Sequence record: NC_023593.1 | DNA from: Escherichia phage KBNP1711 | Strand: one strand, 5' to 3' | DNA length: 64,000 nucleotides | Part shown: one piece after another, positions 9,279-50,841 of the stretch | How the letters are laid out: every line of letters begins with the position of its first letter | Numbering within the stretch: position 1 is the stretch's first letter | Made by a program: the position numbers and the translations under genes | Notes under the pieces: generated by a model | Seen by the model: the letters and a program-made list of their open reading frames with translations, nothing else | Databases searched by the model: none | Told to the model about the DNA's origin: nothing

Positions 9279-9287
9279 TAATGTATA
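9279..9287 (+). promoter_or_regulatory. TAATGTATA motif (candidate phage promoter element)
   Basis: Exact motif 34 nt upstream of ATG 9321. Confidence 0.45.
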
Positions 9288-35794: not shown

Positions 35795-35803
35795 TATACA
35801 TTA
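35795..35803 (-). promoter_or_regulatory. TAATGTATA motif (- strand)
   Basis: + strand 'tatacatta'; 58 nt upstream of SSB-like gene start. Confidence 0.4.
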
Positions 35804-40547: not shown

Positions 40548-41910
40548 AGTTAAAGGCATATATAAATGTCTTCGCATTGTCACGAGTAGGAAGACCAGCA
40601 AGTCTCTGATTATGAGAATGGATATCACCTTCTAACAGAATATCACGATACATAACAGCAGAAGCTAAACCACGTTCAGCTAATGCTTTCTTACCAGCGT
40701 TACCTTCTGCAATTGCTTCAGCAAGCATGTCTCTACACTCTTTAATGAGGTAGTGAGCAAGCATACGAAGCTCTAATCCAGAACCATCATAACCTAGGAA
40801 GAGTTCTCTACCAGCTGGTACATAATACTTATATAACCCTACTGGTTTGTCTTTCTTTCCGGGTTTTCCACGTTCGTAGATAACGTTTGTATTTTTTCGT
40901 AAGTAACACCCATCAGGGATATTGTTGGTAATGATGAAAGGATAGTTATGACTATCATCTGTGGAGTAGTTAGATTGAAATAAACTCCTACACTCGTGAC
41001 CAAACAGACCGCGAGAAGGAATATTAACAACAATGCGATGTTTAAAACGAAATGTCGGAGTAGCGCAGCTATTAGCTTCCGCTGAGAGTTTACCATCTGG
41101 ACGTTCCTTATCAATCAGTCCATTAATCAAGCCTAGTCTGTGAGCCGCTACAACACGTCTCTTAAGCAGACTTCCCACCTTACCTAGATCACCCTCAAGA
41201 CCTTCTTCAAGAGTCTCTTCGAGGTTTGTAGGAGCTGTGGGCCACTTGTTCGAAGTAGCTAATGCTCTCTTAATTTCATCAAAGGTTACAGGTTTCTTCC
41301 TGTTAGGGTTTAAACCTAAACCAAAGACATAAGCCTTCATGTAGTTGACAGTTTTGTGACGAAAGTGCTTATCCAAGAATTTCTTGATATCAGCATCAAC
41401 CATCTGAGCTGTCTGTCGCTCTTTCTCATTGCCACGCATCCAAGAGTTGTACCATTCTTGATACGTTCCACACTTACGCAAGGCTCGCTTAATCTCAAAT
41501 GTGTTCCAAGGCTTCTTAGATGTATTAAATTCTGGAGGAAGAAAACCTTCATCCATCAGTGCTTCTTTAACTCGTGCATCCTTTGATGGGTCAAAGTCAA
41601 CATACTCAACACAAGTAAAAGCTCCACCGATATCTTCCCTCTTTAACCCCACTCTGTCACAATATAATTGAGGCCACTTCTGAAGAGCACCAGTCTTCTT
41701 AAAGGGTTTCATGTAAGTAGAACCATCAACCCTCATCTTAGGTAACAGAGGAATCAGCTCTCTGTCGATGTTAACGATAATCTCTCTGAGAAGGTGAACA
41801 TACCACCGTGCATTCCTCCGATTAAAGTTGACACCACTCTTCGCTTGCTTTGAAATTATATCAGCGACAGTCATCTCCGTTAAGAACGGAAGTACATCAG
41901 GGTTCTCCAT
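40548..41910 (-). CDS. DNA polymerase (family A), exon 1
   Basis: Motif A 'DGSGLELRMLAHY'; start of motif B 'RDNAKTFIY'; AAGGAG RBS. Confidence 0.7.
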
Positions 41911-44558: not shown

Positions 44559-44744
44559 TCATTTCACAACCTTAAATTTGAATGTTGTTGGGTGATAATA
44601 ATGCAACCTGTTAATGGTGTGCTTTGTTTCAAGATATGTCCTACAGGAGTGACACATAACATGAGACAAACCAGTCACAGGATTGGGCTTAAAATTGATG
44701 ATAGTCTTCTCTTTCTTACAGAAGCTACACACTTTCTTATCCAT
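44559..44744 (-). CDS. small zinc-ribbon protein
   Basis: 'CSFC...CHSC' paired CxxC. Confidence 0.35.
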   Translation of the reverse strand: MDKKVCSFCKKEKTIINFKPNPVTGLSHVMCHSCRTYLETKHTINRLHYYHPTTFKFKVVK

Positions 44745-44892: not shown

Positions 44893-45549
44893 TTAATTCT
44901 CCAAAGTTTTCTTCAGAGCTGCCCACGAGATTGGGTAGAGTTTAGCCATCTCTTCATCCAGAGATTGAGCAAACACTCGAACTTCGTATTGAGCGTGAGA
45001 GGAGAGTCGCTGACGACACAACTCAAACCAGCCATACAAAGAACCAGTCCACACCCACTCAGTGATCATTCCCTGAGGAAGAACAAATCGAGCTTGCTCT
45101 GGTGCAACGAATTCAATCAACTTGTCATATGCTGCTAGAGAGGCTTCATATGCATCGTTAATCAACATTAATGCTTCAGCTCGCTCTCCATCAATGAGTT
45201 GAACCCCTGAACCTGCATGGAGGTCCGAAGGTCTCGCAAAAATCTCTTTAGGGATGAAGACTTCAACTGCTCCATCTTTATACCTCCGGGACATTTCGTT
45301 CCACGAGAATCCAACCTGATGCTTGCCCAGCTGTCTCGCAATTGCGATAGGTGCTTTGCATCGGAAACTGACTTGCGGGTGCCTGAAAGGCGTGACATGC
45401 TTCTCTCTTGCGAGGAAGTTGATGAGACGTTCATCACGTTCATTTAAATCACCTTCACGGGTTACGCCAAAGGAAACTCGAGCTGCGTTTACTACGCTAC
45501 GATCACTTCCCATAGCTTCGATTAATGTTGCTTGTAATTGTTCATTCAT
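44893..45549 (-). CDS. thyX: flavin-dependent thymidylate synthase (ThyX family), atypical RHR motif
   Basis: Matches recalled Thermotoga ThyX ('AARVSF','KAPI..ARQ','S.RY','SHAQ.E'); has KHQ where RHR is expected. Confidence 0.65.
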   Translation of the reverse strand: MNEQLQATLIEAMGSDRSVVNAARVSFGVTREGDLNERDERLINFLAREKHVTPFRHPQVSFRCKAPIAIARQLGKHQVGFSWNEMSRRYKDGAVEVFIPKEIFARPSDLHAGSGVQLIDGERAEALMLINDAYEASLAAYDKLIEFVAPEQARFVLPQGMITEWVWTGSLYGWFELCRQRLSSHAQYEVRVFAQSLDEEMAKLYPISWAALKKTLEN

Positions 45550-45564
45550 CCGTGAATTTCCTTA

Positions 45565-45774
45565 TTAATATTCTTTTACATAATAAACCACTAAGGTTCC
45601 CATCTCTGACAATGTTGATTTATGTAAGCTTACTTTACTATAAATCTTTGGAGCCATCTTAAGAGCCTTCTTAAAACGGCGAGCATCTTTACGAGTAGCA
45701 AAGTGCTCTGTAACAGGTATAGACAGATCTTGGTAGATATAATATACCACCGTCCAATATTTTTTCATAATCAA
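45565..45774 (-). CDS. small protein, member of a 4-copy paralogue family
   Basis: 'W.V........F.TRK(D/E)AR..KK...' and C-terminal YY shared with 47631..48267. Confidence 0.4.
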   Translation of the reverse strand: MIMKKYWTVVYYIYQDLSIPVTEHFATRKDARRFKKALKMAPKIYSKVSLHKSTLSEMGTLVVYYVKEY

Positions 45775-46043
45775 ACACCTAGGGCAGTAGTTAAGAATGC
45801 TTTCAGGTTTGCTTCAGTCTGCATACCAGAGATGCTGTAGTGTGCACCACTGTTACGGTCAGGCACAACGAAAGCAGGGATACTTCGTACACCATACTTA
45901 ACAGCTTGTTCACGACCATCACCTTCAAGGATATTAATCTCTTCCACTTCTACATCAAACTCCTTAACAACCTTCTCAAAGGTAGGAGCCATTGCTTTAC
46001 ATGGAGCACACTGATCACTATAAAACTTAATTACTTTACTCAT
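45771..46043 (-). CDS. thioredoxin-like protein
   Basis: 'CAPC' active-site dithiol; AAGGA RBS before internal Met (track ORF to 46097). Confidence 0.6.
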   Translation of the reverse strand: MSKVIKFYSDQCAPCKAMAPTFEKVVKEFDVEVEEINILEGDGREQAVKYGVRSIPAFVVPDRNSGAHYSISGMQTEANLKAFLTTALGV

Positions 46044-46233
46044 TCTATTCCTTGTTAATAAACAGGTTGATATGATGCTGGGTAGCAGGAACAACAATAA
46101 AAGATTTATACTGACCTTTTGCTAAGTCATGAGCAATCTTCTTTGTCTGACCAAGACCCATCACACAGCCGCTAACGATAATGGCATGTGCTTGTAATTC
46201 TTCAGGTAGGTTTAGTTTCACTCTTTGGATTCC

Positions 46234-46419
46234 TTATAGCATACAAAGAATAATAACAAGAGGTAGTGTTATAGCAAAATGTACCAGAACAACACTACCT
46301 AGCTTGATAGCTTTAACATCCTCTTCTGCTGGGTTTTCTTTAATTGCTAAATTTCGAGCTTTATATATAACAGTACCAACTATTAACGACCACACGGCCC
46401 ACACAATCAGTGAAATCAT
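46234..46419 (-). CDS. small two-TM membrane protein (paralogue 1)
   Basis: Two hydrophobic segments; similar to 46429..46608. Confidence 0.35.
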   Translation of the reverse strand: MISLIVWAVWSLIVGTVIYKARNLAIKENPAEEDVKAIKLGSVVLVHFAITLPLVIILCML

Positions 46420-46428
46420 ATCAAACCC

Positions 46429-46608
46429 TTATGCAGTCCACAGGTGGAGAAGGAAAGGAATCACAATAGTACAAACTACCAGAGCGATGCTGCCATGTTT
46501 AATAGCTTTAGCTTCACTTGGATTTTCTTTAAGCATCTGCTTCTGGGCCAGATAGACGATACCACCAATAATGATTGCCCAAAAAGACCATACGATTGCT
46601 GAAAACAT
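46429..46608 (-). CDS. small two-TM membrane protein (paralogue 2)
   Basis: 'MFSAIVWSFWAIIIGG...KENPSEAKAIKHGS' resembles 46234..46419; track ORF trimmed to internal Met. Confidence 0.35.
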   Translation of the reverse strand: MFSAIVWSFWAIIIGGIVYLAQKQMLKENPSEAKAIKHGSIALVVCTIVIPFLLHLWTA

Positions 46609-46669
46609 ATTCACATCCTTATAAAGAAGTTCGCCCCACCTCGGATTAGGAGACAGGGCGGAGGTTTGA

Positions 46670-47254
46670 TTAGTAAGACACGTCACCACTGGAGTGGGAC
46701 ATGTTGCTCTTGACGAAGTAACAGAACTTTCCAAGACCTTCATTAATTTCTTGAAGCATACTCTGATCAACTGGATAGGTGCACAAGTCTGAATCAAACT
46801 CGTCCATCTTCTCAATGATACACATAAGAGTCATGCACATGTCAGAAAGCATACCGTCCATGTCGAGATCAGCGTTACCTTCTCGGAACCAAGCACAACC
46901 AAGATAGCTACTAGCTGTTGCATCCACTTTAATGCAGTGATAACGCATTCGCTCTGCTACCCGATCACCAGTTTCACGAGCATAATCTTCTAGTTCATCG
47001 AACATACCGTGAACACCTTGGAAACCAGCTCCAGAGACGTTCCAGTGATAGTTCTTTGATTTGATGTGTAGAAGTTCAAGGTTAGCCTGCACACCACACA
47101 GGATGTGCTCTAGGCTGTTACCGCTAATCAATTTATTCATTCCCTCTAGACGAGAGATAGAAGAGTCAGTTGTAGAGAATGGGTTGCTAGAACCCACTCG
47201 TGTCAGTTCAGGTAAGTCGAAGACATTATTATGCATTAGGTTCATCTCCTTCAA
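46670..47254 (-). CDS. Dps/ferritin-like protein
   Basis: 'ANLELLHIKSKNYHWNVSGAGFQGVHGMFDELEDYARETGDRVAERM' resembles the Dps di-iron site helix pair. Confidence 0.45.
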   Translation of the reverse strand: MKEMNLMHNNVFDLPELTRVGSSNPFSTTDSSISRLEGMNKLISGNSLEHILCGVQANLELLHIKSKNYHWNVSGAGFQGVHGMFDELEDYARETGDRVAERMRYHCIKVDATASSYLGCAWFREGNADLDMDGMLSDMCMTLMCIIEKMDEFDSDLCTYPVDQSMLQEINEGLGKFCYFVKSNMSHSSGDVSY

Positions 47255-47558
47255 GCTCAGTAGAGTTAGCTACATTTCGTTCCAGATTTGAGATTACCTG
47301 TTGGGTGATAACGATGCAGTTCTGTGGGTCAACTGACTTAGAACGTCCCATCTCAGGGTCATACACCTTAACACGTTTTGCTGTAGAACCAGTTACCTGT
47401 AATACCTTGAGAAGATAACCCTGATTCCCGATAGACCATGCAACAACATCACGATTCTTGATGAATCGACCAAGCATATCACGATGATAGAACTGCTGCA
47501 TAACCTTTGATTTATTAATCTCTTCGGCTGGCGGAGCCACTTTACTCAAATCTAACAT
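47229..47558 (-). CDS. hypothetical protein
   Basis: ORF track; variant AAATGTATA motif about 40 nt upstream. Confidence 0.35.
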   Translation of the reverse strand: MLDLSKVAPPAEEINKSKVMQQFYHRDMLGRFIKNRDVVAWSIGNQGYLLKVLQVTGSTAKRVKVYDPEMGRSKSVDPQNCIVITQQVISNLERNVANSTELEGDEPNA

Positions 47559-47630
47559 TTCACTCTCTCCTGTTTAACACAATATTCTTATACTGTATAT
47601 ACATTTGAGAGTGATCATATCTACTACCAA

Positions 47631-47840
47631 TCAGTAGTAAATTACTTTAGACATAAAAGAACCAGTGTTAGGGTCTTCATGCCAGCGATGTATGTCAGCG
47701 CTTTTTACTATTGTGCCCAGAGTCTTCAACTGTTTCTTAGCAATACGAGCCTCTTTGCGAGTGTCAAACAATTTGATGTTATCTTTTCTCATATGTTGCT
47801 CAAGATCCCAAACAACATGAATAGCCCACATCTTTTTCAT
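47631..47840 (-). CDS. small protein, paralogue family member
   Basis: Tandem array member. Confidence 0.4.
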   Translation of the reverse strand: MKKMWAIHVVWDLEQHMRKDNIKLFDTRKEARIAKKQLKTLGTIVKSADIHRWHEDPNTGSFMSKVIYY

Positions 47841-48055
47841 TAGTAATGTACCTTTCCGCTGATATAAATACGGCCTGAGGTATACTCATAGCCCTTGAGA
47901 ATCTTAACAGAGGTAGTGGAGCCATCGTTTAGTGCACAGATTGACTTCTTAAGATTGCGTGCATCTTCTCGTGTCTTCTGGTAGGTCATGGTCACACCCC
48001 CACTCTTCCACTCTGTTTTAACTAACCAAACTATTTTCATAAGACCTGCTCTCAT
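47840..48055 (-). CDS. small protein, paralogue family member
   Basis: Tandem array member. Confidence 0.4.
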   Translation of the reverse strand: MRAGLMKIVWLVKTEWKSGGVTMTYQKTREDARNLKKSICALNDGSTTSVKILKGYEYTSGRIYISGKVHY

Positions 48056-48267
48056 TAGTAGTACACCTTGCTACCAGCCATAAATGCCCCTGTTGAGTTT
48101 ATCATGGCTTTGCTGATAGTAACTTTCTTACACCGTAAACATACCTTCCAGTTCTTTTTACAGATTCGAGCTTCTTGTCGAGTGTTACAAAAAATAGCCG
48201 AAGATATTTCTTGGGTGTTGTTATCATAAACACGAACACACCACTTTTTCATTGTTCCAAACTCCAC
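48055..48267 (-). CDS. small protein, paralogue family member
   Basis: Tandem array member. Confidence 0.4.
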   Translation of the reverse strand: MEFGTMKKWCVRVYDNNTQEISSAIFCNTRQEARICKKNWKVCLRCKKVTISKAMINSTGAFMAGSKVYY

Positions 48268-48467
48268 TATCTGTCAACCGATTCAGGGACAAACTGCATT
48301 ACACAGACCTGATTACGAGGAAGGTTTATTTCACAAGCGGCTTTTCTATCAGCAACCTTAGATGACGAGTTAGGGCCAATTTGAGCCATCATTAATCCCA
48401 TAGCTAACATGCCGAGGATTACACCAATTGCTAAAGATGCTACAGTTTCTTGTTTCATCTTGATCAC
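48267..48467 (-). CDS. small membrane protein
   Basis: One hydrophobic segment 'LAIGVILGMLAMGLMMA'. Confidence 0.3.
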   Translation of the reverse strand: MIKMKQETVASLAIGVILGMLAMGLMMAQIGPNSSSKVADRKAACEINLPRNQVCVMQFVPESVDR

Positions 48468-48997
48468 ACCCCTTTAGATGCAACTACACCTTCAGAATTA
48501 TTATAACGACCCTTCACTGCATATGAATGTTCCCCTGCATGAGAGTGCTCAAACATAACCATCTGACCAACACGCATACCAGCACGAACTCGTAAGCTAT
48601 GATGCTTGGTTACGTTATGGAATTCAAATGTCAGCTTACTGCTATTAAACCCTGCGTCTGCCCACCCAGCGTGGAGATGGTTCAAGCCACAACGAGCCAT
48701 CGAAGACCGCAGGACAAACAAACTGGAGATGTTATCTGGAAGGTTAAACTCTTCCATCGAGTGAGCTAAGAAGAATTGTCCCGGAGTAATGATAATACCG
48801 TCTTCAGGGATTTTTACTTCTTTCCACTTGAGATTTTCTTTCGCATCAATGTCAACAATCCCATCAGCCTGTTCTTCAATAAGGATAGTATCACCAATAC
48901 GGATATCCACACTAGCAGCGTTAACATACTTATGCTCCGCATCCAGAAAACCGTTATCGATAACGTCGTGTAATTCCATGCTTCCTAATAAACTCAT
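48464..48997 (-). CDS. dcd: dCTP deaminase (dCTP deaminase/dUTPase superfamily)
   Basis: 'VDIRIGD', 'LRSSMARCGL', 'HAGWADAGF' match E. coli Dcd motifs (recalled). Confidence 0.65.
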   Translation of the reverse strand: MSLLGSMELHDVIDNGFLDAEHKYVNAASVDIRIGDTILIEEQADGIVDIDAKENLKWKEVKIPEDGIIITPGQFFLAHSMEEFNLPDNISSLFVLRSSMARCGLNHLHAGWADAGFNSSKLTFEFHNVTKHHSLRVRAGMRVGQMVMFEHSHAGEHSYAVKGRYNNSEGVVASKGV

Positions 48998-49011: not shown

Positions 49012-50292
49012 TTAATCTGTGATACTGTCGCTTTCGTCAACCCAGACTGGATTATTAATCTGTCCTAAACGACGAGCTGATGTTTCGTTAATAGAGTTAA
49101 CCCCTGCTGTGCGAGGGTTTGTGTACCACGGTCGGACTATGCTACCCGACTGAATTGCTTGGTTTGCTTCTACATGCCACCTGTTTGATACCGTGTTGGC
49201 TTCAAAGTTACCACCCGCTCCACCACTGATAGGCACAGCTTGAGCTGGTTGATTTACTCGGTTAGTTCCTGCCCCAAAGGCTGCTGCAAATTCAGACACA
49301 CGTGCACTAAATGAAGAACGAGCACGCTGAGGAGGTGATATATCATTTCGTGTATCTACTGCACGAGGCATAGCCCAAGTATCATCTGTTGAGATATCAG
49401 GGGTAGGCTCTTGCTCTAGAGGTTGAAGATTAGCTGTCCATTGACTATTCAGTATACGATAGAAATCTGCACCATAACCACTTCGGATAACATCCTCTCT
49501 GACACCAAAGAAGCGACTGATATCCCCACCGATTCGGGCTAGTTTGTCATTGTATGCAGGTATGATTATTCCACCCTCTGTCACTAAATCAGAGACACGA
49601 CTTGTTGTAAGTGGTGAAGTGATCCAACAATAATAATCAGTAATGTGACCATCGTATCCGAAGAATGCAATCTCTGCATCAGGCCATTTCTTGTGGACAT
49701 ATGCCACTTCACGGTTAGAACAAACAGGGATTGCACCTGTTTCAGTCATTGCATAGAAGCCGTCAGAAGAGAACCAAAGTGAATCTAGTGCTAAGAATCC
49801 ACGACACACGCTCGGGAAAGTAGCAGCCAGCGCCCCAAGTGAGGTAGGTTCATTGAACATTAACTGAATCTTTGCACTCTGATAATTAATCTCTAGGATA
49901 TCTACAAAATTCAAAGAAGACCCAGGGGCATATTGATTATTACTTCGTCCAATATCCTGCTCAATGAGAAGAGATCTTGTTTCAACACCATGAGCCTCTG
50001 CCCACTCTTTGAAATCTTCAAGGAACAAGCGAGCCTTAGCTCGCCACATCGACCGATCAGTTACAGACTGTCTCGGCAATCCACCCTCTGTAGTGATGAG
50101 AAAGATATCAATGTCGTGAGGTTCACGCGTCTGAAAGATTGCATCCCTAACAGCACCACCTGCAATGATAGGGTACACACCATCAGGGATTAAACGGTTT
50201 GCAATCAACTCGTTAATTAACGTAAGACCAGACACAAGCTGCGGACTATCATCAATCCGACGACGAATTAGTGCATTAGGGATATTATACAT
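49012..50292 (-). CDS. nucleotidyltransferase (CCA-adding/poly(A) polymerase head-domain type)
   Basis: 'IIAGGAVRDAIF...HDIDIFL' matches the 'GGxVRD...DxD' active site. Confidence 0.5.
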   Translation of the reverse strand: MYNIPNALIRRRIDDSPQLVSGLTLINELIANRLIPDGVYPIIAGGAVRDAIFQTREPHDIDIFLITTEGGLPRQSVTDRSMWRAKARLFLEDFKEWAEAHGVETRSLLIEQDIGRSNNQYAPGSSLNFVDILEINYQSAKIQLMFNEPTSLGALAATFPSVCRGFLALDSLWFSSDGFYAMTETGAIPVCSNREVAYVHKKWPDAEIAFFGYDGHITDYYCWITSPLTTSRVSDLVTEGGIIIPAYNDKLARIGGDISRFFGVREDVIRSGYGADFYRILNSQWTANLQPLEQEPTPDISTDDTWAMPRAVDTRNDISPPQRARSSFSARVSEFAAAFGAGTNRVNQPAQAVPISGGAGGNFEANTVSNRWHVEANQAIQSGSIVRPWYTNPRTAGVNSINETSARRLGQINNPVWVDESDSITD

Positions 50293-50841
50293 TTACATTT
50301 TCCAATATAAAGATGGGGGGTCATTTGGGTCAAAGTTTGCAATATGGCAAAGATATTTATAAACCTTAACCGTTAAGTTTACGTCCTGTTCACAATAAGT
50401 AAACATGTCCTCTGTAAAGGCATCCCATGCTTCTTCCTGTTCACCGTAATCACCCTTAAGCTCTTCTAAGAACTCACCCCATTGCTTTAAGCCATGACCT
50501 CTTGGGCCATGTCTAGGGTCGCCTTTCGGATACTCAGGACTGTCACCAATACGGTCAGGTTTAAGATACCGACTCAGACATAAAGTGTCTAGGACGTTGA
50601 ATTTGTAATCAATCAAATCAGGGTACATCTTCTTCAGAGCACATAAGTCGAAGTCAATAACGTTATGACCTACAACAACATCAGCCTCTGTAAGTTTCTT
50701 GATACCCTCTTCAATCTGGTGAGGGCGAAATCCCCACCGTTCACCAGTTGATATATCGAAGATAAAGATACACCATACGTTTGTGATATTGTCGTACAGT
50801 GCATCACTCTCAATATCAAATGCGTAGACTTTCTTTACCAC
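50293..50841 (-). CDS. DnaQ-like 3'-5' exonuclease
   Basis: Exo I 'YAFDIESD', Exo II-like '[11 protein letters not shown]'. Confidence 0.55.

Follow-up and report, generated by a model that had tools for sequence, protein, structure and literature searches.

A family of small basic proteins in the nucleotide-metabolism block of the phiEco32-like coliphage KBNP1711

Four paralogous genes on the minus strand

The window analyzed here, a stretch of 64,000 nucleotides from Escherichia phage KBNP1711 (NC_023593.1), carries four small related genes, termed copies A, B, C and D, whose relationship, distribution and possible role are the subject of this report. Between positions 45000 and 49000 its DNA is 87-90% identical to that of approximately 100 podophages of Escherichia and Shigella that belong to the subfamily Gordonclarkvirinae (Kuravirus and relatives), with phage 4E8 as the closest match, and the window belongs to a Kuravirus, i.e., a phiEco32-like coliphage. 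Three of the genes form a tandem array on the minus strand, in which copy D (48055..48252) comes first and encodes 65 amino acids (MKKWCVRVYDN...GSKVYY; isoelectric point (pI) 9.8, net charge +10), the length that is also annotated for its 4E8 ortholog. Copy C (47840..48055, minus strand) encodes 71 amino acids from the ATG within TAATG, or 66 from the ATG at 48040, and copy B (47631..47840, minus strand), the last gene of the array, encodes 69. Copy A (45565..45768, minus strand, 67 amino acids) is solitary and lies between the genes for thioredoxin (Trx) and ThyX. Copies B, C and D correspond to phiEco32 gp69-71, and B is the ortholog of gp69, with 97% amino acid identity.

An initial annotation, made from the sequence alone, had described the four open reading frames (ORFs) as a diversified paralog family, and this is borne out by pairwise and profile comparisons. 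Smith-Waterman local alignments scored against 1000 shuffles gave significant similarity, with z-scores of 10.6 (A-B), 8.1 (B-D) and 7.7 (A-D). Copy C, the most divergent of the four, reached z-scores of 3.6-3.7 against each other copy, and its membership is secured by the profile matches, since all four proteins match the phrog_4939 profile end to end (profile positions 1-2 to 67 of 67) with E-values of 1e-22 to 1e-28 (A, 4.5e-25; B, 3.4e-28; C, 1.3e-22; D, 4.8e-26). A profile built from the four copies, run against 1000 six-frame ORFs of the window, recovered just A-D, and the best match after these had an E-value of 0.37. The four ORFs are ancient duplicates of one phage-specific family. 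The phrog_4939 group, to which all four belong, includes phiEco32 gp69, gp70 and gp71 as well as orthologs in Kuravirus, Nieuwekanaalvirus and Suseptimavirus, and its function is unassigned in PHROGs.

The motifs that the initial annotation had ascribed to the family are approximate and looser than first given. Over 51 family members W5, T27, R28 and R32 (B numbering) are invariant, A31 and K35 are found in at least 90%, 92% have K or R at position 36, and 88% keep the C-terminal tyrosine. The N-terminal W.V.V, on the other hand, is exact in D only, copy C has one additional residue ahead of TR, and of the proposed C-terminal (V)YY the last tyrosine alone is common to all four copies, as A ends in KEY and C in VHY.

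The stop/start overlaps between the tandem copies were described correctly, the D/C and C/B junctions both being TAATG, and phiEco32, Paul and 172-1 have identical 1-nucleotide overlaps in their annotation. Within the array, the preceding copy ends in codons (AAG GTG.. or AAG GTA..) that serve as the Shine-Dalgarno sequence of its successor, such that AAGGTG from the last codons of D sits 8 nucleotides before the ATG of C. Because gene overlaps of 1 or 4 nucleotides are common throughout the window genome, translational coupling is given little weight. Orthologs begin with a conserved MKK.W, and the start of D is probably the ATG at 48252, with GGAG 9 nucleotides before it, rather than the GTG at 48267; similarly, A probably starts at the ATG at 45768, with AGGTG 7 nucleotides before it, rather than at the TTG at 45774. 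All four ORFs are thus found on the minus strand at the coordinates first given and in the ORF list, but with the starts of D and A probably placed too far upstream.

Where dS was finite, the ratio of non-synonymous to synonymous substitution rates (dN/dS) was calculated for ortholog pairs, and the diverged pairs (D vs. phiEco32; C and D vs. NJ01; A vs. 4E8) gave values of 0.17-0.25, which points to purifying selection on the family slots at a dN/dS of about 0.2. Orthologs are present in >100 phage records, and the four ORFs are, as far as sequence can show, genuine genes.

Distribution and turnover of the copies

According to the database searches, the family scarcely occurs outside phiEco32-like podophages. 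When 1.84 billion cluster representatives were searched with a profile, 35 were returned at E-values up to 1e-3, with lengths of 47-82 amino acids and the match spanning most of each, while a word-indexed search yielded 51 members, essentially all on contigs of ~77 kb. The annotated phages that carry the family are phiEco32-like phages of Escherichia, Shigella and Salmonella only, the matches in an IMG/VR scan were phiEco32 and NJ01 only, and the structural matches in BFVD were restricted to family members and to uncharacterised proteins from the same phages or allied ones. Exactly four members are present in the complete 4E8 genome, with no further one elsewhere in it. Salmonella phage 7-11 (Grimontviridae; L015, NC_015938) harbors one divergent, unannotated copy (40948-41202, minus strand; E 2.5e-6 within that genome), which contains KTRAEARAHKK and lies between gp054 and gp055, a context unlike the Kuravirus slots. 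The context is also unlike these slots on a short metagenomic contig (L008, 3288-3879), where a clear member (E 5.7e-16) stands beside a weak one (E 0.004), the two being located downstream of a gene for DNA polymerase A.

Along the direction of transcription the local order in the window is nucleotidyltransferase (NTase; 49012-50292), dCTP deaminase Dcd (48464-48997), a 66-amino acid membrane ORF, D, C, B and a spacer, followed by a 109-amino acid gene (the phiEco32 gp68 homolog), a Dps-like gene, two small membrane proteins, a 58-amino acid ORF, thioredoxin, A and ThyX. The order Dcd - array - gp68 - Dps is the same in phiEco32, NJ01, 4E8, Paul, EP335, 172-1, SU7, ECBP2, PAS59 and three distant metagenomic relatives (L005-L007), and the array of the window occupies the syntenic position of phiEco32 gp69-71. 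In the Gordonclarkvirinae and in these metagenomic relatives the family has two fixed slots, namely Dcd/gp68 and thioredoxin/ThyX. The Dcd/gp68 slot holds two copies in SU7, ECBP2, PAS59 and L007, three in the window, 4E8, phiEco32, NJ01, Paul, EP335, 172-1 and L006, and at least four in L005. The thioredoxin/ThyX slot contains one copy or none, and is empty in phiEco32.

Other genes are found at these sites as well. The thioredoxin/ThyX slot is an insertion hot spot: EP335 and SU7 carry an annotated HNH homing endonuclease there, PAS59 has an unnamed ORF that agrees with it in size and position, and ECBP2 has a family member plus an extra 155-amino acid ORF (occupant coordinates: L010, 5352-5834; L012 and L013, 5586-6077; L014, 5804-6271). 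Another variable slot lies between Dcd and copy D, where the window has an ORF of 66 amino acids (48267-48467, minus strand) with an N-terminal transmembrane segment and with no homolog at the same position in 4E8, phiEco32 or NJ01. A 207-nucleotide (68-amino acid) gene is located between Dcd and the array in 4E8, Paul and 172-1, the 4E8 version having no detectable similarity to the 66-amino acid ORF of the window, and phiEco32 has no gene there.

The D-, C-, B- and A-types can each be recognized across genera, with identities of 23-36% between types and 37-100% within a type, and the duplications are therefore older than the radiation of these phages. In all seven Kuravirus and Nieuwekanaalvirus isolates with a three-copy array the types follow the order D, C, B.

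Within this conserved arrangement the copies themselves change rapidly. Mean pairwise amino acid identity, computed across the same 12 genomes, is 0.93 for the gp68 homolog, 0.88 for Dcd, 0.84 for Dps, 0.83 for ThyX and 0.79 for Trx, as compared to 0.49 (minimum about 0.25) for the first array slot and 0.51 (minimum about 0.23) for the last, which confirms the proposed diversification; by this measure the family slots are hypervariable and change much faster than the flanking genes. The alleles of the window are moreover mosaic, as C and D are 100 and 98% identical to their 4E8 counterparts and both 51-55% identical to those of phiEco32 and NJ01, while A is 96% identical to NJ01 and 40% to 4E8. 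For B the dS to phiEco32 is 0.03, against 0.6-0.9 for the flanking Dcd and gp68. On these values individual copies are swapped from phage to phage or else diverge far more rapidly than the adjacent genes; they therefore travel between phages as cassettes of one gene or of the array, and diverge quickly. Relative to other phages with phrog_4939 genes, the window shows no difference in kind, having its own allele mix with D and C of the 4E8 type and A of the NJ01 type.

Promoters and temporal class

The promoter element recognized by the gp36 holoenzyme of phiEco32 has the consensus tAATGTAtA, and P68 is a gp36-dependent promoter (PMC8948821, PMC12276001). Exact matches to WAATGTATA occur eight times in the window, vs. 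1.4 expected by chance, at 9279, 21063, 26300 and 35867 on the plus strand and at 35795, 43252, 47598 and 50286 on the minus strand, and their orientation fits the late (plus) and middle (minus) blocks. The gp36-type match AAATGTATA at 47598..47606 (minus strand) lies 25 nucleotides downstream of the stop codon of B, is the positional counterpart of P68, and has a promoter annotated there in the 4E8 record. A second AAATGTATA motif (50286..50294, minus strand) is found at the start of the NTase gene, a position for which the 4E8 and SU7 records annotate a promoter, and it is possible that this motif serves as a gp36-type promoter for an NTase-Dcd-D-C-B transcription unit.

The temporal class of the copies depends on the scheme that is followed. 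P68 has been used as “the middle promoter” (PMC12276001), and for SU10 the coding sequences 69-125 were classed as early and 25-68 as middle by homology to phiEco32, with the remark that early transcription may read through (PMC4281155). The latter paper sets the early/middle border exactly at P68, so that D, C and B would be the last of the early genes and A a middle one (PMC4281155). The group that measured expression classes describes the nucleotide-metabolism cluster, along with gp79 further upstream, as “middle” (PMC8948821). On either scheme the family genes are outside the distal block of small early ORFs that is thought to hold takeover functions, and the far early region of small ORFs in the complete 4E8 genome (50-76 kb) contains no family member. 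The assignment of the copies to an “early region” in the initial annotation is not supported as written; they are part of the nucleotide-metabolism/replication block, at the early/middle border.

Charge, fold and possible role

All 45 members examined are strongly basic, with a pI of 9.1-11.0 and, over some 67 residues, a net charge of +3 to +11. The AlphaFold2 models of copy B (predicted local distance difference test (pLDDT) 83.7) and copy C (pLDDT 88.5) have the same order of elements, beta-beta-alpha-beta-beta, which in B corresponds to two strands (3-11 and 21-25), then the helix (28-39) and two further strands (45-56 and 60-68). In the 51-member alignment the helix positions 31, 34 and 38 are hydrophobic, indicating a buried face that is packed on the sheet, while T27, R28 and R32 are conserved to 100%, K35 to a fraction of 0.90, and positions 36 and 39 are basic in 0.92 and 0.69 of the members, respectively. 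From the i/i+4 spacing we infer that R28, R32, K35, K36 and K39 form a basic ridge on the side of the helix facing away from the sheet. No invariant residue looks catalytic, and the histidine of “IHK” is replaced in C and D.

Comparisons with characterized families gave few leads. Scans of the four proteins against Pfam, NCBIfam and PADLOC returned nothing significant, nor did Pfam for the 51 members, and a sequence-profile search of the Protein Data Bank (PDB) produced two motif-level matches only (E about 0.8), both to ribosomal proteins carrying TRKEAR. The predicted fold has no significant match in the PDB; the best structural match is PsaD, a photosystem I subunit of unrelated biology (Foldseek E 0.16, identity 12-18%), and is taken as a generic alpha+beta similarity. 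DUF2188 (PF09954) comprises small bacterial proteins that resemble the family in size and motif order (W-x-V strand, T-x-x-E-A helix, IH, G and Y), but it gave no match for the four proteins at E-values up to 10, nor for the 51 members at E-values up to 1, and kinship was rejected by profile-profile comparison at an hhalign probability of 2.8% over 26 columns only, while a positive control sequence matched PF09954 at 4e-31. Anti-restriction DNA mimics of the Ocr/ArdA type are very acidic and present a surface mimicking DNA, and an identity of this kind is contradicted by the pI and net charge of all 45 members. T7 Gp2, an inhibitor of the host RNA polymerase, is likewise small, with a beta-beta-alpha topology and a K-K-x-W-A-x-V strand, but the analogy is one of size and topology only, as Gp2 is acidic whereas the family is strongly basic, and kinship was rejected at an hhalign probability of 2.2%. 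The phage-encoded proteins identified in RNA polymerase purified from phiEco32-infected cells were gp36 and gp79 only (PMC12276001). No significant sequence or structural similarity to a characterized anti-CRISPR or anti-defence inhibitor was detected. The only link to GIY-YIG/SegE-like homing endonucleases is a 45-residue tblastn match (E 0.3) to the helix “LFETDKEARIAEKEL” of a T4-like endonuclease, which is annotated as HNH and has a weak SegE GIY-YIG Pfam match; the family is devoid of GIY or YIG motifs, and the match was judged to be due to chance. A literature search found no paper mentioning phi32_69, phi32_70, phi32_71 or phrog_4939, preprints on gene essentiality and accessory genes do not mention Kuravirus or phiEco32, and the searched passages of a paper on a prophage small RNA involving Kuraviruses contain nothing on the family genes.

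The explanation that we favour, tentatively and with rather less than even confidence, is that the family proteins share a polyanionic ligand, preferably DNA or RNA, for which the variable sheet and loops confer differing specificities. They would be non-enzymatic binding proteins, in which a four-stranded antiparallel sheet carries one helix, and the basic ridge on the solvent face of this helix (R28, R32, K35/K36 and K39), together with the universal positive charge, would dock the protein on the polyanion, most likely DNA or RNA. Each paralog would derive its own specificity from the variable sheet and loops, and would act during the replication/middle phase of infection. Since the ridge is kept on a variable scaffold in paralogs that share ~25% identity, a common polyanionic ligand appears to be the best explanation, and the combination of uniform positive charge and conserved basic helix suggests one shared ligand of this type rather than many different host proteins.

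Several points weigh against polyanion binding. The invariant arginines and lysines could instead have a structural role or touch an acidic surface on a protein, and the exposure of the ridge was deduced from helical periodicity, using the secondary-structure summary of the models and not their coordinates. Hypervariable multi-copy small genes are also predicted by an arms-race (anti-defence) role. Lastly, the SU10 proteome includes the neighbouring gp68, Dps and thioredoxin, but not the family proteins (PMC4281155, Table 2), a non-detection that counts as weak evidence because 8-kDa proteins rich in lysine and arginine give few tryptic peptides. A bolder proposal, to which we assign little likelihood, is that these small basic proteins of new fold coat or mark replicating phage DNA (or transcripts) and thereby shield it from host nucleases, with rapidly exchanged paralogs tuning the protection to different hosts.

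The main rival to polyanion binding is that the proteins are host-takeover or anti-defence inhibitors, each paralog neutralising a different host protein (e.g., a restriction or other defence component) while the array diversifies under an arms race, which we regard as possible, if doubtful. Slots far more variable than their flanks, alleles shuffled between otherwise similar phages and an array copy number ranging from two to at least four are all in keeping with such a role, as are the small size of the proteins and the lack of enzymatic motifs and of homologs outside the phage lineage; furthermore, the Gordonclarkvirinae reportedly show striking resistance to restriction-modification systems without a known modification or inhibitor (PMC11990801). 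However, dN/dS is about 0.2 and positive selection is not seen at the level of the gene, one basic helix is kept in all paralogs, which are all strongly basic, unlike the very acidic DNA mimics, and similarity to known inhibitors is missing. The genes are, in addition, located outside the far early region, in which the takeover genes are believed to be concentrated (PMC8948821).

It is unlikely that the copies are hetero-oligomer subunits or assist the phage machinery for nucleotide metabolism and replication (Dcd, ThyX, thioredoxin, NTase, primase-helicase) as accessory factors, held at fixed ratios by translational coupling. Their place by Dcd and between Trx and ThyX is maintained throughout the Gordonclarkvirinae examined and also in the distant metagenomic relatives, yet the whole block is syntenic, so that adjacency is not specific to the family genes, and the single copy of Salmonella phage 7-11 is located elsewhere. 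The TAATG coupling of D, C and B loses force for the same reason as above, namely the frequency of such overlaps in the genome. The D-C-B type order conserved in the seven three-copy isolates would also fit subunits of a complex, but copy number varies, the Trx/ThyX copy is dispensable, being absent in phiEco32, and a core enzyme conserved to 95% is not expected to tolerate partners that are 25-50% identical. Still more improbable is a role as virion or packaging proteins that associate with DNA and condense the genome or travel with it, for although the proteins are very basic and small, they are encoded in the leftward early/middle block and not with the late genes, and the SU10 particle preparation, in which 34 proteins including gp68, Dps and thioredoxin were detected, did not reveal them (PMC4281155). 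That the four are chance ORFs or decayed, unexpressed duplicates can practically be dismissed, since, although the literature search found no proteomic or ribosome-profiling evidence for the family, full-length profile matches, start sites in a conserved context that includes Shine-Dalgarno sequences, dN/dS values that stay well under 1 even at high divergence, conservation in three genera and metagenomes, and the confident, concordant fold predictions for C and B all argue against it.

The genes were already annotated as hypothetical in about a hundred Kuravirus records and grouped as one family by PHROGs. What is added here is that the array arose by ancient duplication and keeps to a fixed slot, that a strong positive charge is universal and the basic helix conserved, that the fold is predicted with confidence but lacks a solved relative, and that turnover is much faster than in the surrounding conserved replication genes. 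The phage group is abundant, used therapeutically and unusually restriction-resistant, and the family offers a well-defined and cheap experimental target, as the four genes are ~200 bp each and genetically tractable BASEL Kuraviruses exist. If the proteins protect DNA or inhibit a host system, they would be of real interest, while the finding would stay minor if they are generic nucleic-acid binders; as it stands, it is a tidy, tractable example of fast-evolving small phage proteins and not a surprise.

Some further features of the neighbourhood deserve mention. The NTase (49012-50292, minus strand), a homolog of phiEco32 gp73, is 35-44% identical to its orthologs over the aligned part, in comparison to 95-96% for the adjacent Dcd, and the NTase-Dcd locus has been linked to possible DNA modification in a published suggestion (PMC11990801). 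A small gene downstream of ThyX is named “anti-restriction nuclease” in the Paul and SU7 records (L009, 6215-6448; L013, 6846-7079), and in the metagenomic loci L005 and L006 a small gene with a Pfam ExoX-like_C match is similarly placed, with 44559-44744 (minus strand) and neighbours as candidates for a counterpart in the window. The two small membrane proteins upstream of the 58-amino acid ORF constitute a second tandem paralog pair (46234-46419 and 46429-46608, both minus strand; 61 and 59 amino acids), which are 45% identical (E 5e-16) and each have hydrophobic N- and C-terminal segments, and of which phiEco32 annotates one only (gp66).

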